From: Escherichia coli
GTDB lineage: Bacteria > Pseudomonadota > Gammaproteobacteria > Enterobacterales > Enterobacteriaceae
Assembly (NCBI RefSeq): GCF_003790525.1
Contig: NZ_CP033635.1
Direction: 5' to 3' (one strand)
Length of the DNA stretch: 64,000 nt
The notes under the pieces: generated by a model
The model's input: the letters and a program-made list of their open reading frames with translations, nothing else
What the model was told of the DNA's origin: nothing
Database searches by the model: none
Shown here: piece after piece, positions 2,588 through 62,381 of the stretch
How the letters are laid out: the number at the start of each line of letters is the position of its first letter
Numbering within the stretch: position 1 is the stretch's first letter
Made by a program: the position numbers and the translations under genes

Positions 2588-3802
2588 ATGAAATTACCGA
2601 TTTATCTCGACTACTCCGCAACCACGCCGGTGGACCCGCGTGTTGCCGAGAAAATGATGCAGTTTATGACGATGGACGGAACCTTTGGTAACCCGGCCTC
2701 CCGTTCTCACCGTTTCGGCTGGCAGGCTGAAGAAGCGGTTGATATCGCCCGTAATCAGATTGCAGATCTGGTCGGCGCTGACCCGCGTGAAATCGTCTTT
2801 ACCTCTGGTGCAACCGAATCTGACAACCTGGCGATCAAAGGTGCAGCCAACTTTTATCAGAAAAAAGGCAAGCACATCATCACCAGCAAAACCGAACACA
2901 AAGCGGTACTGGATACCTGCCGTCAGCTGGAGCGCGAAGGTTTCGAAGTCACCTACCTGGCACCGCAGCGTAACGGCATTATCGACCTGAAAGAACTTGA
3001 AGCAGCGATGCGTGACGACACCATCCTCGTTTCTATCATGCACGTGAATAACGAAATCGGCGTGGTGCAGGATATCGCGGCTATCGGCGAAATGTGCCGT
3101 GCTCGCGGCATTATCTATCACGTTGATGCAACCCAGAGCGTGGGCAAACTGCCTATCGACCTGAGCCAGTTGAAAGTTGACCTGATGTCATTCTCCGGTC
3201 ACAAAATCTATGGCCCGAAAGGTATCGGTGCGCTGTATGTGCGTCGTAAACCGCGCGTACGCATCGAAGCGCAAATGCACGGTGGCGGTCACGAGCGCGG
3301 TATGCGTTCCGGCACTCTGCCTGTTCACCAGATCGTTGGTATGGGCGAAGCCTATCGCATCGCAAAAGAAGAGATGGCGACCGAGATGGAACGTCTGCGC
3401 GGCCTGCGTAACCGTCTGTGGAACGGCATCAAAGATATCGAAGAAGTTTACCTGAACGGTGACCTGGAACACGGTGCGCCGAACATTCTCAACGTCAGCT
3501 TCAACTACGTTGAAGGTGAGTCGCTGATTATGGCGCTGAAAGACCTCGCGGTTTCTTCAGGTTCCGCCTGTACGTCAGCAAGCCTCGAACCGTCCTACGT
3601 GCTGCGCGCGCTGGGGCTGAACGACGAGCTGGCACATAGCTCTATCCGTTTCTCTTTAGGTCGTTTTACTACTGAAGAAGAGATCGACTACACCATCGAG
3701 TTAGTTCGTAAATCCATCGGTCGTCTGCGTGACCTTTCTCCGCTGTGGGAAATGTACAAGCAGGGCGTGGATCTGAACAGCATCGAATGGGCACATCATT
3801 AA
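2588..3802 (+). CDS. iscS: Cysteine desulfurase IscS
   Basis: Start chosen at [16 protein letters not shown] (ATG 2588), 404 aa; ORF-track start 2564 is a 5' extension. Confidence 0.95.
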
Positions 3803-3829: not shown

Positions 3830-4216
3830 ATGGCTTACAGCGAAAAAGTTATCGACCATTACGAGAATCCGCGTAACGTGGGTTCTTTTGACAACAACGA
3901 CGAGAACGTCGGCAGCGGCATGGTGGGTGCACCGGCCTGTGGCGACGTGATGAAGTTGCAGATTAAAGTCAACGATGAAGGTATCATTGAAGACGCGCGT
4001 TTTAAAACTTACGGCTGCGGTTCTGCTATCGCTTCCAGCTCCCTGGTCACCGAATGGGTGAAAGGGAAGTCTCTCGACGAAGCGCAGGCGATCAAAAACA
4101 CCGATATTGCTGAAGAACTTGAACTGCCGCCAGTGAAAATTCACTGTTCTATTCTGGCAGAAGACGCGATCAAAGCCGCCATTGCGGACTATAAAAGCAA
4201 ACGTGAAGCAAAATAA
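3830..4216 (+). CDS. iscU: Fe-S scaffold IscU
   Basis: 128-aa ORF MAYSEKVIDHYENPRNVGSF with conserved Cys. Confidence 0.95.
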   Translation: MAYSEKVIDHYENPRNVGSFDNNDENVGSGMVGAPACGDVMKLQIKVNDEGIIEDARFKTYGCGSAIASSSLVTEWVKGKSLDEAQAIKNTDIAEELELPPVKIHCSILAEDAIKAAIADYKSKREAK

Positions 4217-7035: not shown

Positions 7036-7371
7036 ATGCCAAAGATTGTTATTTTGCCTCATCAGGATCTCTGTCCTGATGGCGCTGTTCTGGAAGCTAA
7101 TAGCGGTGAAACCATTCTCGACGCAGCTCTGCGTAACGGTATCGAGATTGAACACGCCTGTGAAAAATCCTGTGCTTGCACCACCTGCCACTGCATCGTT
7201 CGCGAAGGTTTTGACTCGCTGCCGGAAAGCTCAGAGCAGGAAGACGACATGCTGGACAAAGCCTGGGGGCTGGAGCCGGAAAGCCGTTTAAGCTGCCAGG
7301 CGCGCGTTACCGACGAAGATTTAGTGGTCGAAATCCCGCGTTACACTATCAACCATGCGCGTGAGCATTAA
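7036..7371 (+). CDS. fdx: [2Fe-2S] ferredoxin Fdx
   Basis: 111-aa [19 protein letters not shown] with Cys ligands, follows hscA. Confidence 0.93.
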
Positions 7372-7382
7372 CAGAGGTTAGT

Positions 7383-7583
7383 ATGGGACTTAAGTGGACC
7401 GATAGCCGCGAAATTGGCGAAGCACTGTACGATGCGTATCCCGATATTGATCCGAAAATGGTTCGATTCACCGATATGCATCAGTGGATTTGCGCTCTGG
7501 AAGATTTCGACGACGACCCGCAGGCATCGAATGAGAAAATCCTCGAAGCGATTTTGTTGGTCTGGCTGGACGAAGCCGAGTGA
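7383..7583 (+). CDS. iscX: IscX (YfhJ)
   Basis: 66-aa acidic [27 protein letters not shown], last gene of isc operon. Confidence 0.9.
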
Positions 7584-7641
7584 ATGAACGGGCTGCCTGA
7601 GGGTAGCCCGTTTTGCTGTTAAACGAATAAGGATAACTAAA

Positions 7642-9066: not shown

Positions 9067-9843
9067 ATGTCCGAAACAAAAAATGAACTTGAAGACCTGC
9101 TGGAAAAAGCAGCAACCGAACCGGCGCACCGCCCGGCCTTTTTCCGTACTCTACTGGAATCCACCGTCTGGGTGCCGGGTACGGCGGCGCAGGGCGAGGC
9201 TGTGGTTGAAGATAGCGCGCTTGATTTACAGCACTGGGAAAAAGAAGACGGCACCAGCGTCATTCCTTTTTTTACCTCGTTAGAAGCACTTCAACAGGCG
9301 GTTGAAGACGAACAGGCATTTGTCGTAATGCCCGTTCGCACATTGTTTGAGATGACCCTTGGCGAAACGCTCTTCCTTAATGCCAAACTGCCAACCGGTA
9401 AAGAATTTATGCCGCGTGAAATCAGTTTGTTGATTGGTGAAGAAGGAAATCCGCTGAGCAGCCAGGAAGTACTGGAGGGCGGTGAATCGCTGATATTATC
9501 GGAAGTCGCAGAGCCACCAGCACAAATGATTGATTCTCTCACCACCTTATTTAAAACTATTAAGCCGGTGAAGCGTGCTTTTATTTGTTCAATTAAAGAG
9601 AACGAAGAGGCACAGCCTAATTTACTTATTGGCATTGAAGCCGATGGTGATATCGAAGAAATTATTCAGGCGGCGGGAAGTGTAGCGACCGATACAATAC
9701 CTGGCGATGAACCCATCGATATTTGTCAGGTGAAAAAAGGGGAAAAAGGAATTAGCCACTTTATTACCGAACATATTGTGCCATTCTATGAACGTCGCTG
9801 GGGTGGTTTTTTGCGTGACTTTAAACAGAACCGGATAATCTAA
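9067..9843 (+). CDS. sseB: SseB, enhancer of serine sensitivity
   Basis: 258 aa from MSETKNELEDLLEKAATEP; convergent with sseA. Confidence 0.85.
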   Translation: MSETKNELEDLLEKAATEPAHRPAFFRTLLESTVWVPGTAAQGEAVVEDSALDLQHWEKEDGTSVIPFFTSLEALQQAVEDEQAFVVMPVRTLFEMTLGETLFLNAKLPTGKEFMPREISLLIGEEGNPLSSQEVLEGGESLILSEVAEPPAQMIDSLTTLFKTIKPVKRAFICSIKENEEAQPNLLIGIEADGDIEEIIQAAGSVATDTIPGDEPIDICQVKKGEKGISHFITEHIVPFYERRWGGFLRDFKQNRII

Positions 9844-9945
9844 AATATGCCGCCCCAAAGGGCGGCATTCGGGCTTACCTGCTGTTCTGAAGGTTGTTAA
9901 CCACCAATAAATTGTTACCGGAGAGACTCCGGTTATTATTTACCT

Positions 9946-10325
9946 CGGTTAACAGCGCACCAGAAACAATAAGTACGATACAAAAGCACCGTATCTTCAT
10001 TGTGCGGTCCATGCGAAGACCGCATCACGACAGCACCACTGGCGATATTGCCGCGATAGCAAGCGCTGTGAAACACCTGCATTTACGGCCATGGAACATC
10101 CTTTCCTTAAGCCAGCGCCCGTTTGCGAGACGGCGGAAAGGGCCGGTGTCGATAATACGCTAAATAAACAATGATTACTCTCTTTCGCTTGACAAAAAGA
10201 GAGTTACTGGCGAGTATTGCTTTGCTGTGAAGCACCTGCGTTGCTCATGCAACACAAGCCAATCTGCTGGAAAGGCCGCGAACCAGACCAGCAATAAAAA
10301 ACCGCCAAATTCGGCGGTTTTTTAT
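9946..10325 (+). ncRNA. Candidate RyfA-like sRNA in the sseB-sseA intergenic region (strand and ends uncertain)
   Basis: About 500 bp non-coding gap between convergent genes; promoter-like TTGTTA-16-TATTAT at 9911-9938; strong hairpin plus T-run at 10300-10330; RyfA is known to lie between sseA and sseB in E. coli. Confidence 0.25.
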
Positions 10326-21868: not shown

Positions 21869-22987
21869 ATGCATAACCAGGCTCCAATTCAACGTAGAAA
21901 ATCAACACGTATTTACGTTGGGAATGTGCCGATTGGCGATGGTGCTCCCATCGCCGTACAGTCCATGACCAATACGCGTACGACAGACGTCGAAGCAACG
22001 GTCAATCAAATCAAGGCGCTGGAACGTGTTGGCGCTGATATCGTCCGTGTCTCCGTACCGACGATGGACGCGGCAGAAGCGTTCAAACTCATCAAACAGC
22101 AGGTTAACGTGCCGCTGGTGGCTGACATCCACTTCGACTATCGCATTGCGCTGAAAGTAGCGGAATACGGCGTCGATTGTCTGCGTATTAACCCTGGCAA
22201 TATCGGTAATGAAGAGCGTATTCGCATGGTGGTTGACTGTGCGCGCGATAAAAACATTCCGATCCGTATTGGCGTTAACGCCGGATCGCTGGAAAAAGAT
22301 CTGCAAGAAAAGTATGGCGAACCGACGCCGCAGGCGTTGCTGGAATCTGCCATGCGTCATGTTGATCATCTCGATCGCCTGAACTTCGAACAGTTCAAAG
22401 TCAGCGTGAAAGCGTCAGACGTCTTCCTCGCTGTTGAGTCTTATCGTTTGCTGGCAAAACAGATCGATCAGCCGCTGCATCTGGGGATCACCGAAGCGGG
22501 TGGTGCGCGCAGCGGGGCGGTTAAATCCGCCATTGGTTTAGGTCTGCTGCTGTCTGAAGGCATCGGCGACACGCTGCGCGTATCGCTGGCGGCCGATCCG
22601 GTCGAAGAGATCAAAGTCGGTTTCGATATTTTGAAATCGCTGCGTATCCGTTCGCGCGGGATCAACTTCATCGCCTGCCCGACCTGTTCGCGTCAGGAAT
22701 TTGATGTTATCGGTACGGTTAACGCGCTGGAGCAACGCCTGGAAGATATCATCACTCCGATGGACGTTTCGATTATCGGCTGCGTGGTGAATGGCCCAGG
22801 TGAGGCGCTGGTTTCTACACTCGGCGTCACCGGCGGCAACAAGAAAAGCGGCCTCTATGAAGATGGCGTGCGCAAAGACCGTCTGGACAACAACGATATG
22901 ATCGATCAGCTGGAAGCGCGCATTCGTGCGAAAGCCAGTCAGCTGGACGAAGCGCGTCGAATTGACGTTCAGCAGGTTGAAAAATAA
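21869..22987 (+). CDS. ispG: HMBPP synthase IspG
   Basis: 372-aa [39 protein letters not shown]. Confidence 0.95.
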
Positions 22988-23097
22988 TAACGTGATGGGA
23001 AGCGCCTCGCTTCCCGTGTATGATTGAACCCGCATGGCTCCCGAAACATTGAGGGAAGCGTTGAGGGTTCATTTTTATATTCAGAAAGAGAATAAAC

Positions 23098-49670: not shown

Positions 49671-50255
49671 TTATTGTTTGTTTTTTTCGTTCTGGTTGAT
49701 GACAAATTCAATGTAACTTTCGATCTTTGCTTTCTCGGTTTCGGGTAACAATGCGTAGCGCGAGCGATCATAGTTGATGGTCGCAGGGTCATGCGGATGA
49801 ATCAGTAGTTCATATCCGTGACGCCCGAATGCAGATGCAACATTCTCCAGGGTGGAAATGGAAACGCTGACCTCATTGTTTAACAGGCGGCTTATTGTCA
49901 CCTGGGCGACGCCGGATGCGCGGTGAAGTTTTCCCTGAGTTGAAAGGTCGCGGCTTTCACTCATCCAGCGTTCCAGGTTGTGAGCCGCCAGCTGACCTAT
50001 ATCACTCGGGCCGACAGGCTGAAAACCCTCCTGAGAAAGCGAGCGATCAATATCAAGCCAGTTACGGGGTTTATTGGCGGCAGCTTCAATTTTTCGCGCA
50101 ACCTGGTCGCCGATAACCTTCTTGCCAAGAGCCCAGCGGTTTACCAGATTTGCCTGAGTTCCAAGTTTTTCTGCCATCCGCGTCTGAACACCATTGAATT
50201 CACGGTCGATCAAGTCGTTGAGATTTTGCCTGCGGACGTCCTGGATACTTTTCAT
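49671..50255 (-). CDS. Prophage repressor (two HTH regions)
   Basis: 194-aa ORF divergent from cro-like gene; HTH-like segments QTRMAEKLGTQANLVNRWALGKK and ASGVAQVTISRLLNNE. Confidence 0.55.
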   Translation of the reverse strand: MKSIQDVRRQNLNDLIDREFNGVQTRMAEKLGTQANLVNRWALGKKVIGDQVARKIEAAANKPRNWLDIDRSLSQEGFQPVGPSDIGQLAAHNLERWMSESRDLSTQGKLHRASGVAQVTISRLLNNEVSVSISTLENVASAFGRHGYELLIHPHDPATINYDRSRYALLPETEKAKIESYIEFVINQNEKNKQ

Positions 50256-57479: not shown

Positions 57480-58950
57480 CAGATACAGCGTTATCTCCTG
57501 AAGAGCAGTTGATCGAGGATATTGCAGGGTTCACTCACGATCCGCTTGGCTATGCCCTCTATGCGTTCCCGTGGGGGAAGAGGGTACTGAACTGGCACAT
57601 GCCACCGGCCCACGTCAGTGGCAGGCTGATGCGTTCCGAGAGATACGTGATCACCTGCAGAATCCAGAGACGCGCTATCAGCCGCTTATGCTGGCACGCG
57701 CTTCTGGTCACGGTATTGGTAAATCCGCATTCATCTCAATGCTGATCAACTGGGGCATGTCCACTTGCGAGGATTGTAAGGTCGTGGTGACCGCCAACAC
57801 CGACAACCAGCTACGAACTAAGACCTGGCCGGAAATTATCAAGTGGTCGAACCTTGCTATCACGAAAGACTGGTTTACCTGTACCGCTACCGCGATGTAC
57901 AGCAATGATCCTGGGCACGACAAGCGGTGGCGAGCTGACGCAATCCCTTGGTCTGAGCACAACACTGAGGCATTCGCCGGACTACACAACGAGCGTAAAC
58001 GCATCATCGTGGTATTTGATGAAGCGTCGAACATTGCGGATCTGGTGTGGGAAGTTGCCGAGGGTGCGCTAACGGACGAAGACACTGAGATTATCTGGGT
58101 GGCGTTCGGAAACCCTACACGTAACACCGGACGTTTCCGCGAATGTTTCCGCAAATATAAACACCGCTGGAAAACTGCGCAGATTGACAGCCGAACGGTG
58201 GAAGGCACTAACAAACAGCAGTTGCAGAAATGGGTTGATGACTACGGGGAAGACAGCGACTTCGTTAAAATCCGTGTGCGCGGCATATTCCCTGATGCAT
58301 CTGAATTGCAGTTTATCCCTACCGGTCTTACTGATGAGGCAATGAAACGGGTGGTGACCGCTGCGCAGGTGGCGCATGCTCCGGTGATAATCGGTGTTGA
58401 CCCGGCATATTCAGGCGTTGATGACGCGGTGATATACCTGCGGCAGGGGCTACACAGTAAGGTGCTGTGGACTGGCAACAAGACTACCGACGATCTGATT
58501 ATGGCGAAGCGTATCGCTGACTTTGAAGACCAGTATCAGGCTGACGCGGTGTTCATCGACTTCGGTTACGGAACCGGTTTGAAGTCAATCGGTGATGGCT
58601 GGGGACGTACATGGCAACTTGTTCCGTTCGGTGGCGCGTCTACTGACCCGCAGATGCTCAACAAGCGTGGGGAGATGTTCAACTCATGCAAGACATGGCT
58701 GAGGCTCGGCGGCATGCTGGATGACCAGGAAACTGCAGACGACCTGTCGGCGGCAGAGTACAAAGTTCGTGTGGACGGTAAAATCGTTATCGAACCGAAG
58801 GAAGATATCAAAGAGCGGCTTGGGCGTTCGCCTGGTAAAGGCGATGCGCTACTGCTGACGTTTGCTTTCCCGGTGTCAAAGCGCCTGCGACTTCCCGGGC
58901 AGCAGAACCAGCAAGGCAAGGCGCTTACCGAGTACGATCCATATGCTTAG
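57476..58950 (+). CDS. Terminase large subunit, apparently frameshifted in a G5 run (57573-57577)
   Basis: Coupled GTG start 57476 gives 32 codons in one frame; Walker-A (GHGIGKS) body continues in another frame from 57571; adding one G restores a single ORF. Confidence 0.7.
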
Positions 58951-59765
58951 TCTTTATTTTTATCCTCGAAACCTGATAATCCAGATAGAACACCAAAGTT
59001 ATTAAAAACGTTTGGCTTACCAGATTTTAATCCGGATAAGTTGTGTTGCTCCAAAAAGTTACTAATTGTTTGGCCGTTGCCAAGTGCAAGGCTTTTTATT
59101 TGAGATTTTTCAGGGTATTTGAGTTTGTATTCGTCGAAATCATTTTGGAGGGTCTTATATGCCTCATTCATTCTTCCAAGAGTTTCCGATATCTCTTTTA
59201 ATGAATGATTTAGAGCTGCTAACTGAGCACTGGCGGATCTCAATTCGTCATCTTTAGCTTTCAACTCGGCAGTCAATTCACCCATACTATTCTTTGATCG
59301 AATAATCTCTTCTTTCATCTCTTGGATGTCTTTTTCCGCGCCAGTCTTAACTTTGTCGTATGTAACATCTTTTTTAGCCAATAACCTCTGCAGTCTTGTT
59401 TCACGCTGGATTTTTCTTGCCTTCAGGTGATTTTCGATTGAGTCATTATTATCAAGAGGCTTTGCTTGCCATACGTTAATGATATTGTTTACCCATGGTA
59501 ATAGGCAGCAGATAGCAATTACAGATAAGCATGGATAAAACATAACAGTTTTCCATGTGCTGTTATCTGAGATATATGAAATTTTATCTATTATGTTTGA
59601 TTTGCTAAAAAATAGATAAAGAATTGATTTCCAGTTGAAGGCGCACCAGGACATAACAAAAGCACCAAGCACAGGGTTTTTGGCTCGATTCACGGCAGTA
59701 TTGGCAGTAGATAAAAACAGCTCTTTGAACGATTCAAACATGCTAATTACCTTGAAGTTTTTCAT
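58947..59765 (-). CDS. AT-rich moron: membrane protein with coiled-coil C-terminal region
   Basis: Start inferred at MKNFKVISMF; two hydrophobic segments then Lys/Glu-rich heptad-like region; opposite strand to structural genes. Confidence 0.55.
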   Translation of the reverse strand: MKNFKVISMFESFKELFLSTANTAVNRAKNPVLGAFVMSWCAFNWKSILYLFFSKSNIIDKISYISDNSTWKTVMFYPCLSVIAICCLLPWVNNIINVWQAKPLDNNDSIENHLKARKIQRETRLQRLLAKKDVTYDKVKTGAEKDIQEMKEEIIRSKNSMGELTAELKAKDDELRSASAQLAALNHSLKEISETLGRMNEAYKTLQNDFDEYKLKYPEKSQIKSLALGNGQTISNFLEQHNLSGLKSGKPNVFNNFGVLSGLSGFEDKNKD

Positions 59766-59769
59766 GATT

Positions 59770-59784
59770 ATACCTTTAAGGTAA
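59770..59784. promoter_or_regulatory. Operator-like palindrome next to moron start, overlapping a TATAAT element
   Basis: On moron strand reads TTACCttaaaGGTATAATcATG. Confidence 0.4.
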
Positions 59785-59801
59785 TTTGCGGTCATCAAGC
59801 A

Positions 59802-59825
59802 AAAAAATGCCCGGCGAACCGGGCG
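59802..59825 (-). terminator. Intrinsic terminator downstream of phage tRNA
   Basis: Minus strand gcccgg-ttcg-ccgggc followed by attttttt. Confidence 0.5.
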
Positions 59826-59987
59826 AACTGGAAGCAATGAGTTATGCCTTCCGTGGCTGTACGGGTTTACAGCATGAAGTCATCGCAATGGCGTCCTGCT
59901 GTAAAAAGGGCGGTGATAGTCCTTCAAGGGAAACCATCACCGCCAAGCCCCTGGAACTTCTGGCATCACGGTCCTTAGGCGTGATTC

Positions 59988-60064
59988 TGGCGCGGCATGC
60001 AGGATTCGAACCTGCGACCAACCGCTTAGAAGGCGGTTGCTCTGTCCAACTGAGCTAATGCCAC
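59988..60064 (-). tRNA. tRNA-Arg (anticodon UCU), phage-encoded
   Basis: 77-nt cloverleaf folded by hand: acceptor GTGGCAT/ATGCCGC, anticodon loop CTTCTAA, T-loop GCAGG-TTCGAAT-CCTGC, encoded CCA. Confidence 0.85.
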
Positions 60065-60386
60065 AACGCTGAGAGCACTTAGCCTGTTAAGGCACCACAC
60101 TTTGTCGCGGCTCCATAAATGCTCTCATCGTTGCACCCTCGTCTCTTCCGAGGTGTCACACCGAATCGCCGGGATGGTGAATCCCCGTGCGCGGAATAAA
60201 ACCGCTCGACTTGCACATTCCGGCTACCTGGTTCGTTTGCCCGAGCAAGGGAGGGTGCCCCTTAAACGTATCCAGACCGCTATCGGCGCATGTGCCATAC
60301 ACCGTACTGCTCAAAATAAAAGCTCACCCCACCTGTTCAATTTAACGACAAGCCAGTCAGGTTAATAACCGGAATGAACTCTTTGC

Positions 60387-60401
60387 TTACCTGAAAGGTA
60401 A
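60387..60401. promoter_or_regulatory. Operator-like palindrome TTACCtgaaaGGTAA upstream of head genes
   Basis: Perfect motif family member, followed by TAATAAT. Confidence 0.4.
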
Positions 60402-60480
60402 TAATTAGTGCAGTATCTACGATAAATAAATCACATGTGGTTAAATTGGTAATAATTTAATTGCGTACGGAGTCATTGAT

Positions 60481-60687
60481 ATGTGCATGGGTAGCTCACC
60501 ATCAGTGCCTGCAACACCAGAAGTTCAGGCAGCACCACAGGAGCAGGATGCCGCCGTTGTTGATGCCCGCGACGAAGAAACTCGTCGCCGTCGCGCTGCT
60601 GCTGGTCGTAGTTCTACGCTGCTTACCGGTTCTCAGGGCGACACATCAACCGCTAATACCAGCGGTAAAACGCTGCTTGGTCAGTAA
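60481..60687 (+). CDS. Small phage protein preceding portal
   Basis: 68-aa ORF with GGAG RBS, tightly followed by portal gene. Confidence 0.35.
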   Translation: MCMGSSPSVPATPEVQAAPQEQDAAVVDARDEETRRRRAAAGRSSTLLTGSQGDTSTANTSGKTLLGQ

Positions 60688-60701
60688 CCGGAGTCATTGA
60701 A

Positions 60702-62381
60702 ATGGCGGAAACAACTAAAGAGCGATTGAACAAACAGTTCGCACAACTTGAAAGCGAGCGTCAGTCGTTCGAGCCGCACTGGCGCGAGTTGAGTGATTAC
60801 ATCAACCCGCGTGGTTCCCGCTTTCTGACTTCTGAGGTCAACCGTAACGATCGACGCAATACACGCATTATTGATTCGACCGGGACTATGGCGGCGCGCA
60901 CTCTCGCCAGCGGCATGATGTCAGGCATCACAAGCCCCGCGCGTCCGTGGTTTCGCCTGGCTACGCCAGATCCTGAAATGATGGATTATGGCCCTGTTAA
61001 GTTGTGGCTTGAGGCGGTGCAGAACCGCATGAACGATATGTTCAATAAGTCGAATCTCTACCAGTCTCTTCCGCAGTTATACGGAAGCCTCGGCACATAC
61101 AGCACTGGTGCAATGGCGGTGCTGGAGGATGACGAGGACATCATTCGCACAATGCCATTCCCGATAGGCAGTTACTACCTGGCTAACTCACCTCGTGGCA
61201 GTGTGGACACCTGTTTTCGCAAGTTCTCTATGACTGTTCGTCAGCTTGTTCAGGAGTTCGGGCTAAATAACGTCAGCGAATCCGTAAAAAGCATGTGGGA
61301 AAGCGGCACCTACGAGAAGTGGATTGAAGTGATGCATTCGGTTTACCCGAACATTGACCGCGATACATCGAAGCTGGATAGCAAGAACAAGCCATTCAAA
61401 TCGGTTTATTACGAGGTTGGTGGCGATAACGACAAGTTGTTGCGTGAGTCCGGATTCGATGAGTTTCCAATTATGGCTCCGCGCTGGGAAGTTAACGGCG
61501 AAGATGTTTATGGATCATCATGCCCGGGTATGCTGGCGCTTGGACCTGTTAAGGCATTGCAGCTTCTCCAGAAGCGCAAGTCGCAGTTGATTGATAAAGC
61601 CACCAATCCGCCGATGGTTGCTCCGACTTCCCTCAAGAATCAGCGCGCCTCCCTTCTTCCTGGCGACATAACGTATATCGATCAGATTACTGGTCAGGAT
61701 GGTTTCAGGCCTGCTTATCTGGTTAACCCCAGTACAGCAGATCTGGTAGCAGACATTCAGGACACCCGCCAAATCATTAACAGCGCCTACTTTGTCGATC
61801 TGTTCATGATGTTGCAGAACATCAATACCCGCTCGATGCCTGTTGAAGCGGTGATCGAAATGAAAGAAGAAAAACTTCTGATGTTGGGGCCGGTTCTGGA
61901 GCGTCTGAACGACGAATGTCTTAATCCTCTCATTGACCGCGCTTTCTCGATGATGGTGCGTAAAAACATGCTGCCGCCACCGCCTGACGCGATGGAAGGT
62001 ATGCCCCTGAAGGTCGAATACATTTCTGTCATGGCTCAGGCGCAGAAGTCTATCGGCCTGTCCAGTCTGGCGTCTACGGTCAACTTCATTGGTCAACTTG
62101 CGCAAGCGAAACCAGAAGCTCTCGACAAACTCAATGTTGATCAGGCGATCGATGCATTCGCTGATATGTCCGGAGTGTCTCCAACCGTCATTGTTCCGCA
62201 GGAACAGGTTGAGCAGGCTCGCCAGCAACGGGCACAGCAGCAACAGCAGCAACAAATGATGGCGATGGGAATGGCGGCGGCACAGGGCGCCAAGACGCTA
62301 AGCGAAGCTAAAACTTCGGATCCGAGTGTTTTGTCAGCTATGGCGAATGCAGTTAGTGGTCAGGGTGGGCAATCACAATGA
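60702..62381 (+). CDS. Portal (head-tail connector) protein
   Basis: 559-aa ORF after terminase; Gln/Ala/Met-rich C-terminal tail reminiscent of podovirus connectors. Confidence 0.65.
   Translation: MAETTKERLNKQFAQLESERQSFEPHWRELSDYINPRGSRFLTSEVNRNDRRNTRIIDSTGTMAARTLASGMMSGITSPARPWFRLATPDPEMMDYGPVKLWLEAVQNRMNDMFNKSNLYQSLPQLYGSLGTYSTGAMAVLEDDEDIIRTMPFPIGSYYLANSPRGSVDTCFRKFSMTVRQLVQEFGLNNVSESVKSMWESGTYEKWIEVMHSVYPNIDRDTSKLDSKNKPFKSVYYEVGGDNDKLLRESGFDEFPIMAPRWEVNGEDVYGSSCPGMLALGPVKALQLLQKRKSQLIDKATNPPMVAPTSLKNQRASLLPGDITYIDQITGQDGFRPAYLVNPSTADLVADIQDTRQIINSAYFVDLFMMLQNINTRSMPVEAVIEMKEEKLLMLGPVLERLNDECLNPLIDRAFSMMVRKNMLPPPPDAMEGMPLKVEYISVMAQAQKSIGLSSLASTVNFIGQLAQAKPEALDKLNVDQAIDAFADMSGVSPTVIVPQEQVEQARQQRAQQQQQQQMMAMGMAAAQGAKTLSEAKTSDPSVLSAMANAVSGQGGQSQ

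Follow-up and report, generated by a model that had tools for sequence, protein, structure and literature searches.

In this work we analysed a stretch of 64,000 nucleotides of Escherichia coli DNA (the window below) and the comparative evidence indicates that the tRNA-Arg(UCU) gene of the prophage it contains is not free-standing, but belongs, as its 3' cassette, to a larger conserved unit that includes a structured RNA; this unit, about 0.5 kb long, would run roughly from 60390 to 59903 on the minus strand. Judged by covariation, it is close to certain that the region upstream of the tRNA (60065–60307) encodes a real conserved RNA, sense to the tRNA, with six helices and at least two pseudoknots. 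The tRNA by itself is ordinary, and indeed routine, for the phiV10/epsilon15-like group of phages; what is new relative to the annotated phage tRNA-Arg genes is the fusion of the tRNA to this upstream RNA.

The tRNA-Arg gene and its prophage setting

A 77-nt tRNA-Arg(UCU) on the minus strand had been proposed in a preliminary description of this DNA, with a tRNA prediction tool named as a check. ARAGORN calls a single tRNA in the 64-kb window, tRNA-Arg with anticodon UCU at 59988–60064 (minus strand), exactly the coordinates proposed; the cloverleaf is full and the CCA encoded. Rfam agrees, since a search of the whole window with RF00005 gives the gene 69.4 bits, compared with a gathering score of 29 (E = 4.7e-13). 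An alignment with argU of E. coli K-12 shows no difference in the D arm, D loop or T arm, in the anticodon loop (CUUCUAA) or in G73-CCA, and compensatory changes distinguish the acceptor and anticodon stems. The identity set of ArgRS (A20, C35, U36 and a discriminator base as in argU) is well established, and A20, C35, U36 and G73 are all kept. By every sequence feature this is a genuine argU-type tRNA, an identity that is close to certain, and it is probably functional. A tRNA-Arg is already annotated at the same place in several Uetakevirus records and in RefSeq E. coli prophages, examples being SPN9TCW, SPC32H and the O157 typing phages 9 and 10; the RefSeq record of phiV10 carries no tRNA annotation, and there a CDS on the opposite strand covers the tRNA. 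The argN and argO genes of Stx phages are likewise phage-borne and specify the same isoacceptor, and the tRNA itself shows no difference from such other phage-borne tRNA-Arg(UCU) genes.

On its left side the window is chromosomal E. coli DNA (iscRS, ryfA, sroE), and a prophage of the phiV10/epsilon15 type (Uetakevirus) occupies it from about 45 kb onward. Near-identical prophages have been annotated with integrase, RecT, exonuclease, HTH repressor, replication genes, terS, terL, tRNA-Arg, portal, major capsid, Bbp16 cement protein and gp10 staple protein. The tRNA lies between the genes for the terminase large subunit and the portal, in the morphogenesis region as first described. The layout of the locus is recurrent, namely terL (plus strand), a variable gene (minus), tRNA-Arg (minus), about 400 nt without annotated genes, a small ORF (plus) and the portal gene (plus), and from terL to portal it is common to phiV10, Salmonella phage SPN9TCW and a Klebsiella phage. 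The features of the locus are as follows:

57571–58950, plus strand: terminase large subunit gene, flanking the unit, from the annotation of prophages that are 99–100% identical
58947–59765, minus strand: cargo ORF (the moron of the preliminary description), 272 amino acids, 36% G+C, PHROG 4780, replaced by unrelated genes in relatives
59767–59795, minus strand: cargo promoter, ATGACC-17-TATAAT, 10/12 consensus matches, with a one-mismatch palindrome at 59770–59784
59801–59824, minus strand: terminator T2, GCCCGG-UUCG-CCGGGC followed by U7 (hairpin 59824–59809), the last conserved element before the mosaic break
59903–59944, minus strand: intrinsic terminator T1 of the RNA–tRNA unit, 14-bp stem and U run, conserved in phiV10
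59965–59986, minus strand: conserved 3' hairpin AAUCACG-CCUAAGGAC-CGUGAU, present after the slot in tRNA, tRNA-like and cassette-less versions
59988–60064, minus strand: tRNA-Arg(UCU), 77 nt, CCA encoded (ARAGORN, Rfam, argU identity elements)
60065–60307, minus strand: core of the conserved structured RNA, about 245 nt (covariation, strand-specific G.U pairs)
60308–60386, minus strand: 5' leader of the RNA unit, a variable stretch that the aligned Salmonella and Klebsiella relatives lack or have in different form
60387–60401: exact operator-like palindrome TTACCTGAAAGGTAA, overlapping the –10-like TACCTT (60400–60395, minus strand) of the RNA–tRNA promoter
60407–60417, minus strand: 11-bp deletion (junction 60412/60411) by which the TTGACA –35 kept in all relatives is lost
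60423–60460: AT-rich block that lies between the RNA unit and the small ORF/portal operon divergent from it, and does not vary from E. coli to Klebsiella phages
60481–62381, plus strand: small 68-amino-acid ORF (PHROG 831) and portal gene (60702–62381), flanking the RNA unit and divergent from it

The minus-strand terminator said to follow the tRNA is indeed there, as a hairpin of 14 pairs (59944–59909) that begins 44 nt after the tRNA and is followed by CUUUUU. The suggestion of a mosaic boundary was also borne out, as homology to phiV10 and its relatives stops after T2 (about 59801), some 190 nt from the tRNA. The gene between terL and the second terminator differs in each relative, and aligning the locus across relatives, which had been put forward as a check, shows that the cargo gene downstream of the tRNA is what varies.

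The region upstream of the tRNA encodes a conserved RNA fold

The E. coli, Salmonella and Klebsiella versions of the locus align upstream of the tRNA as near-invariant blocks split by variable, indel-rich stretches, and no convincing ORF was found in 60065–60307. A scan of viral contigs with one conserved block (GGTAGCCGGAATGTGCAAG) yielded at least 120 loci. The fold was read from the alignment, and its elements in the window, all on the minus strand, are:

60304–60284: helix H1, with loop UAUGGCACAUG
60276–60227: helix H2, enclosing a variable hairpin
60228–60210: invariant 19-mer GGUAGCCGGAAUGUGCAAG
between the 19-mer and H4: H3, a variable hairpin
60185–60171: helix H4
60153–60137: helix H5
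60133–60120 with 60077–60064: closing helix H6
H1 loop GCACAU with AUGUGC (60218–60213): pseudoknot
H4 loop CACC with GGUG (60162–60159): pseudoknot

Helices H1, H2, H4, H5 and H6 and three candidate pseudoknots entered the counts. Among 79 distinct sequences, 92.1% of the cells pair and 24 of the 49 pairs have changed on both sides; on four of five measures none of 500 shuffles reaches the observed value, and on the remaining one, further pair types, 106 of 500 do. When the partner was slid by one to three columns, only 30–46% of the cells of these 79 sequences paired. The result is sharper still for 29 sequences that are less than 92% identical and include P1: 98.7% of the cells pair, 11 of 31 pairs are compensatory, and at most 1 of 500 shuffles reaches the observed value. 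The pseudoknot of the H4 loop covaries among the 79 sequences (C-G in 61, A-U in 17), while that of the H1 loop is invariant, so that covariation neither supports nor contradicts it. Many G.U pairs are compatible with the tRNA strand only. Seeding a search independently, with the H1 loop, gave 100 further loci, and because 91 of them carry the exact 19-mer, this element is truly conserved and not an artefact of seeding. When the window and 12 loci were searched at the gathering score, and three regions at E<=10, neither the upstream RNA nor the cassettes described below matched any family of Rfam 15 apart from tRNA; only scattered matches far below the gathering score came up.

The tRNA occupies a slot that is filled by different cassettes in relatives

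Helix H6, formed by CAACG..GAGAGCA and UGCUCUC..CGUUG, reaches as far as U(–1); G(+1) of the tRNA comes immediately after. This U|G is present at –1/+1 in 96 of 104 distinct cassettes. A tRNA-Arg fills the slot in 33 of 153 loci, and in 19 of the 100 newly found ones, and in about 80% of the copies the slot is occupied by hypervariable tRNA-shaped RNAs or is empty. The cassettes fall into 23 sequence clusters, tRNA-Arg and at least 22 others, and at least 10 types are found within a single terL–portal context. Most of the loci that lack the tRNA carry one of these other families, which start with GUGG after the same U. The cassettes have in common a terminal stem of 5–7 bp, a 4-nt tail (GCCA, ACCA, AACA or AACC), a D-arm-like hairpin 2–3 nt after the terminal stem and a T-arm-like hairpin, sometimes the canonical GGUUCGAUUCC, stacked on the 3' strand; the central domain, of 20–300 nt, is wholly different between families. 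With its intron and tmRNA options ARAGORN called only the tRNA-Arg and one dubious case among the cassettes, and the idea that they are unusual tRNAs or tmRNAs was rejected.

In the form without a cassette (BUCT708, L030 type), the hairpin AAUCACG...CGUGAU comes directly after H6, and a terminator follows. As H6 is joined in this form to the very hairpin that follows the cassette elsewhere, the tRNA is an insertion in a larger RNA gene, at a slot whose conserved flanks would permit the exchange of cassettes by recombination. The RNase P of E. coli recognizes U(–1)/G(+1) together with an acceptor and T-arm mimic, and we infer that it would cleave at this junction. The usual leader of an RNase P substrate is single-stranded, and the helix that abuts the predicted cleavage site here counts against this proposal.

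Promoters, putative operators and the cargo gene

The RNA–tRNA unit has a putative promoter, TTGAC(A/C)-17-TACCTT, that the aligned phages of E. coli, Salmonella and Klebsiella share. It is weak by consensus, the –10 matching at 3 of 6 positions, and was not called by a consensus scan. The window copy may be poorly expressed, because its 11-bp deletion took the –35 hexamer; this allele was found in no complete E. coli genome. Over 130 loci, promoter consensus upstream of the RNA was not enriched (39 compared with 31 after shuffling), and a strict terminator scan detected one or more terminators in 69, a result that is not decisive.

The palindrome TTACC-N5-GGTAA occurs, with at most one mismatch, at 17 sites in the window (1.0 expected), and the seven exact sites are all in the prophage. 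The HTH repressor gene lies at 49671–50255 and encodes a protein of 194 amino acids. Exact palindromes flank it, two on its left and one, together with a near-match, in the divergent region between repressor and cro; another lies on the –10/+1 of the RNA–tRNA promoter, and a one-mismatch palindrome covers the –10 of the cargo promoter. The positions of these sites suggest that the palindrome is the operator of the repressor. Since this reading places both promoters under repressor control, the RNA, the tRNA and the cargo would be early lytic functions, and such timing would match what the two other genomic contexts of the RNA suggest (see below). The AT-rich block at 60423–60460 is probably regulatory DNA.

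The cargo ORF has a promoter of its own (10/12), as a moron should, and the operator-like palindrome on it argues for repression in the lysogen; because it shares this palindrome with the RNA–tRNA promoter, it would be expressed early in lytic growth rather than as a lysogen-expressed moron. In searches for a defence or anti-defence identity, the cargo proteins gave only weak coiled-coil matches and fell in PHROG families of no assigned function, and no known defence or anti-defence protein was found near the unit.

AGA usage

The preliminary description suggested that the tRNA compensates for codon usage. In the window, AGA is 2.7-fold enriched in prophage ORFs over flanking host ORFs (3.8 compared with 1.4 per 1000 codons, Fisher p = 0.008). 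The AGA codons are concentrated in the replication genes and in the cargo ORF, where they make up 4 of the 8 Arg codons, and there are almost none in the structural genes. This part of the suggestion stands, but related loci without the tRNA use AGA as much as those that carry it (4.4 per 1000 in 16 loci with another cassette, 3.9 in 19 loci with tRNA-Arg, p = 0.96). Codon supply may not be what maintains the tRNA, since AGA use is equal with and without it; compensation is possible and weakly supported, and it is not what sets the tRNA carriers apart.

Distribution and genomic contexts of the RNA

The RNA is present in 1849 of 5426 complete E. coli genomes (about a third), on chromosomes and on P1-like plasmids and never annotated, and in 89 phage records. 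The 19-mer occurs in about 18 species, all of them Enterobacterales apart from two tiny MAG contigs. One RNA-bearing record is labelled as a Stenotrophomonas phage. A count with a profile HMM gave one copy in each of 153 loci and one in the window; no second copy was detected on the pR side or elsewhere in these loci, some of which cover cro and cII, or in the window. We found no description of this RNA in the searchable literature, whose coverage is incomplete.

The RNA is found once per phage in three unrelated phage types. The first comprises the Uetakevirus phages, as in the window. The second is made up of lambdoid and other siphophages (cdtI, mEp460, 2H10, Stx2c phages, Stx2a_1447, BUCT708). 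A CI/HTH repressor gene precedes the RNA on the same strand in 78 of the 96 other loci, with a median of 277 nt from the end of this gene to the 19-mer. In cdtI, the RNA comes after the cI terminator and a TTGACA promoter with dyad symmetry, and is followed by a cassette, two terminators and early-left genes of the yfdP/Q/R type. In lambdoid phages the RNA thus occupies the position where N/nutL would be, and no N-like protein was found in the cdtI-type early-left regions examined; the YfdP-like first ORF was considered as an N analogue and rejected, as it has no arginine-rich motif. In prophage CPS-53 of E. coli K-12 the RNA is lost, though yfdPQR is kept.

The third context is that of P1, P7, D6, SJ46 and RCS47, where the RNA lies in the C1-controlled ban operon. 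In the P1 type it is located 14 nt after trnI and before ban, without H6 or cassette, and reading of the sequence reveals no terminator after the P1 copy in the approximately 100 nt up to ban. In P1-like elements a tRNA-Ile lies upstream of the RNA, and in P1 the operon holds three tRNAs. Because the P1 copy has neither H6 nor cassette nor terminator, it appears that the RNA can also live inside an mRNA. In P1, CRISPRi knock-down of the region from tciA to ban is tolerated under laboratory conditions (PMC10695390). As this region is dispensable there, and as K-12 CPS-53 has lost the RNA, an accessory role fits.

Comparison with known RNAs

The closest kind of RNA to this one is GOLLD/ROOL. These are complex, pseudoknotted phage RNAs that are often found by tRNA genes and sometimes have tRNAs in a linker (bioRxiv 10.1101/2024.12.08.627333). 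The likeness is that of an ornate, pseudoknotted phage or prophage RNA beside or around tRNAs; however, no match to either family (RF01998, RF03087) was obtained at E<=10, and our RNA, at about 170–330 nt (core about 245), is shorter than the 580–800 nt or more of GOLLD/ROOL. It also differs from them in having a precise slot with an RNase P-type junction at its border, and in its hosts, all detected copies coming from Enterobacterales or their phages (one record being labelled otherwise). Enterobacterales are not known as a main home of GOLLD or ROOL.

The put sites of HK022 are of about 70 nt, form two stem-loops and are present at both pL and pR (PMC9378689). Like put, our RNA is the first early-left element in lambdoid phages that lack N, with terminators after it (cdtI, Stx2a_1447, BUCT708), a position that it does not have in P1. 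In contrast with put, it has a core of 170–250 nt with six helices and two pseudoknots, is three times as large, and is present in a single copy instead of two. Homology to put was discarded, as HK022 pL/putL shows no similarity apart from 13 nt inside nun that match by chance. The Pas sRNAs are unrelated to the RNA.

The C4/CI/CA antisense RNAs of P1, P7, P4 and N15 are small RNAs cut by RNase P from the leader of a phage operon and have a tRNA-like acceptor end. The tRNA-shaped cassettes have the same look and the same leader position, and their sequence is compatible with such an acceptor (U(–1)|G(+1), terminal stem, NCCA-like tail). Nevertheless, Rfam searches gave no match of the RNA or the cassettes to RF01695, and complementarity between cassette and core is not enriched (longest complement 7.4 nt on average, 7.2 after shuffling); inverted repeats in two units gave only short, chance-level matches of the cassette to the rest of the unit, for instance 9 nt in cdtI. 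In addition the P1 copy of the RNA is in the ban operon and not in immI. The arrangement also recalls MALAT1/mascRNA in that a tRNA-like element directly downstream would let RNase P make the 3' end of the RNA. MALAT1 is eukaryotic and unrelated; in our case a true tRNA, probably functional, can stand downstream, and the processing is a prediction.

Discussion

Our observations can be brought together in one account, which we hold to be fairly probable taken as a whole chain: the unit would be an early, repressor-controlled non-coding transcript that RNase P cuts into a stable structured RNA and a tRNA. The RNA–tRNA unit would be transcribed from the TTGAC(A)-17-TACCTT promoter under the operator palindrome, and would be made once the repressor is lifted, early in lytic growth, and not in the lysogen. 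The cut at U(–1)/G(+1) would free the 5' end of the tRNA and give the structured RNA a defined 3' end; RNase P makes such ends in MALAT1/mascRNA and in the phage C4/CI RNAs. The tRNA would then add to the scarce host tRNA-Arg(UCU) for the AGA codons of the replication and cargo genes, and the structured RNA would act as a separate, stable, accessory RNA.

Two simpler explanations bear on the tRNA and its surroundings. The tRNA could be a free-standing gene for rare-codon supply, in which case the conserved sequence upstream would be DNA with the promoters and operators of the tRNA and the divergent portal operon. The AGA enrichment of the prophage ORFs agrees with this, as does the resemblance of the AT-rich block and the operator to regulatory DNA, but DNA that binds proteins would not be expected to show compensatory changes in five helices and one pseudoknot, strand-specific G.U pairs or invariant blocks between indel-rich hairpins, and the same element exists without any tRNA in about 80% of the loci, so that we regard this explanation as very improbable. 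Even less credence, practically none, can be given to the idea that the tRNA is a former or current integration site, an attP/attB remnant that would account for the mosaic junction. The preliminary description had pointed to tRNA genes as integration hotspots; they are common att sites, and the gene content near this one does change. The positions of the prophage ends refute this idea: the prophage lies next to guaA, with the integrase at the end far from the tRNA and beside that junction, and a relative prophage is also integrated next to guaA with its integrase alongside. The tRNA, being internal, is therefore not the attachment site; it is moreover complete, occupies the same internal place in free phage genomes, and the mosaic break is 190 nt away from it, after the second terminator.

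The main rival for the RNA is that it is a cis-acting processive antiterminator, put-like in its action yet unrelated to put, with the tRNA riding on the leader; the RNA would modify the RNA polymerase that transcribes it, and this polymerase would pass the terminators that follow and reach the cargo gene in the prophage, or the early-left operon in lambdoid phages without N. How these phages manage without N is an open problem (PMC12315714), and the setting of the RNA speaks for such a role: in lambdoid phages it stands where N/nutL or putL would be, with the repressor gene and an early-promoter-like site immediately before it and the early-left genes after it, beyond one or two intrinsic terminators; those regions encode no N-like protein; and in the window two terminators separate it from the cargo gene. 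We nevertheless consider this reading unlikely, as the RNA is single in each phage, with none on the pR side in 153 loci, whereas put has two copies, its six-helix core far exceeds the size of put and shares no sequence similarity with HK022 pL/putL, the cargo gene has its own promoter, no terminator is seen in the sequence between the P1 copy and ban, and the tRNA or tRNA-like elements at either end suggest excision as a separate molecule. The reading in which the tRNA and the tRNA-shaped cassettes are counter-defence decoys or spares against tRNA-cutting nucleases, made at the start of infection, starts from the cassettes themselves, whose ends mimic the acceptor, D and T arms and whose centres are extremely variable among close relatives (23 clusters, at least 10 types in the same terL–portal context); the predicted early expression, the uncoupling of tRNA presence from AGA usage and the three tRNAs of the operon that holds the P1 copy would all suit it. 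We judge it quite improbable: no result implicates a defence nuclease specific for tRNA-Arg(UCU), the anticodon loop is identical to that of argU so that the phage tRNA would be cut as well, the hypervariability may reflect a lack of constraint on an RNase P recognition module, and the vicinity of the unit holds no known defence or anti-defence protein. The account of an RNase P-processed early transcript remains the one we prefer.

Whatever its function, this RNA is absent from Rfam and unannotated in every record examined, including those of P1, P7 and Shiga-toxin, Salmonella and Klebsiella phages, and several 'hypothetical proteins' annotated over its region are probably spurious. With its precise cassette slot, the unit adds a new case, besides GOLLD, of tRNAs that are physically part of a larger phage RNA, here in hosts that are genetically tractable. 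The fixed position of the RNA, after the repressor in N-less lambdoid phages and under the operator in phiV10-like phages, leads to testable hypotheses, and it bears on how N-less lambdoid phages read through their early terminators. A bolder possibility, which we put forward as tentative and rather doubtful, is that the RNA founds a new class of regulatory or catalytic RNAs in phages, as the first de-repressed early product of many temperate enterobacterial phages, with a slot for hypervariable tRNA-mimic cassettes, tRNA-Arg among them, shaped by an arms race with tRNA-targeting immunity. If this were true, the RNA could take over the N/put antitermination that lambdoid and Stx phages without N lack, or have a host machine as its target.

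The presumed promoter of the RNA–tRNA unit and the hairpins 3' of its cassette slot

In the window copy, the presumed promoter of the unit formed by the structured RNA and tRNA-Arg(UCU) has lost its TTGACA -35 hexamer through an 11-bp deletion, as judged by comparison with all relatives, and a search of 5426 complete E. coli genomes did not find this deletion allele in any of them. At the other end of the unit, two conserved hairpins lie 3' of the cassette slot, the position that the tRNA occupies here.

60407-60417, junction 60412/60411: site of the 11-bp deletion
59965-59986, minus strand: conserved hairpin 3' of the cassette slot
59869-59902, minus strand: second conserved hairpin, ACAGCAGG...CAUGCUGU, between the two terminators

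The first hairpin has the loop CCUAAGGAC, and its loop and 3' strand together read UAAGGACCGUGAU, which agrees at 10 of 12 positions with the perfect Shine-Dalgarno/anti-16S sequence UAAGGAGGUGAU. The second, which is found in relatives too, could belong to a compound terminator or be a further small RNA element.

The variable gene beyond the terminators

58947-59765, minus strand: cargo ORF, 36% G+C, PHROG 4780

The product of this variable gene has a hydrophobic segment at its N-terminus and a coiled coil. Homologues with 55-69% identity occupy the equivalent slot in other viral contigs of the phiV10/epsilon15-like type, several of which are also close to a Klebsiella phage across the portal region.

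The RNA in other phages and in K-12

In the phiV10 RefSeq record (NC_007804.2) the tRNA-Arg is not annotated, and a hypothetical CDS, PhiV10p04, runs across it on the opposite strand (2672-2923, plus strand, versus 2853-2929, minus strand, in the phiV10 locus); in Tyrion, mEp460, mEp390 and other phages, 'hypothetical proteins' are annotated across the RNA itself. All of these are probably spurious gene calls. The structured RNA core is likewise unannotated in P1 and P7, where it stands between trnI and ban, with a small upstream ORF before ban and with the closing helix and the cassette missing.

Phage P1 (AF234173), 70704-70881 (3001-3178 of the compared locus): structured RNA core

The K-12 prophage CPS-53 retains the early-left genes yfdP/Q/R of lambdoid type; its repressor and RNA segment has given way to sequence containing GATTTTGACGGGTCA-like direct repeats (7248-7604 of the compared locus, L154). 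This replacement may account for the RNA never having come up in work on K-12.

Some copies of the RNA carry large insertions 3' of helix H4/H5 (viral contigs L021 and L019/L029/L100); the one in L021 holds a small, roughly 45-codon ORF, and in another insertion copy H5 is exchanged for a different structured segment. One of the RNA-carrying viral contigs, L014, also has a group II intron D1-D4 domain elsewhere along its length (3929-4154; Rfam RF02005, 186.6 bits). The host-side RNAs of the window are those expected for an E. coli chromosome, and they help to place it.

9842-10146: ryfA
2477-2586: iscRS element
22987-23078: sroE

Putative operators of the prophage repressor

The palindrome TTACC-N5-GGTAA is strongly over-represented in the window (17 sites observed, 1.0 expected), and all seven exact sites lie within the prophage.

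44515, 49537, 49599, 50311, 50359, 50696: TTACC-N5-GGTAA sites
52598, 52660, 56851, 56869, 59770, 60387: further TTACC-N5-GGTAA sites

Sites are present on either side of the HTH repressor gene, within the start of terS and between the replication and downstream genes, and such an operator-like palindrome is also present in the cargo ORF promoter. The sites are probably the operator set of the prophage repressor, a set that exceeds a simple oL/oR pair.
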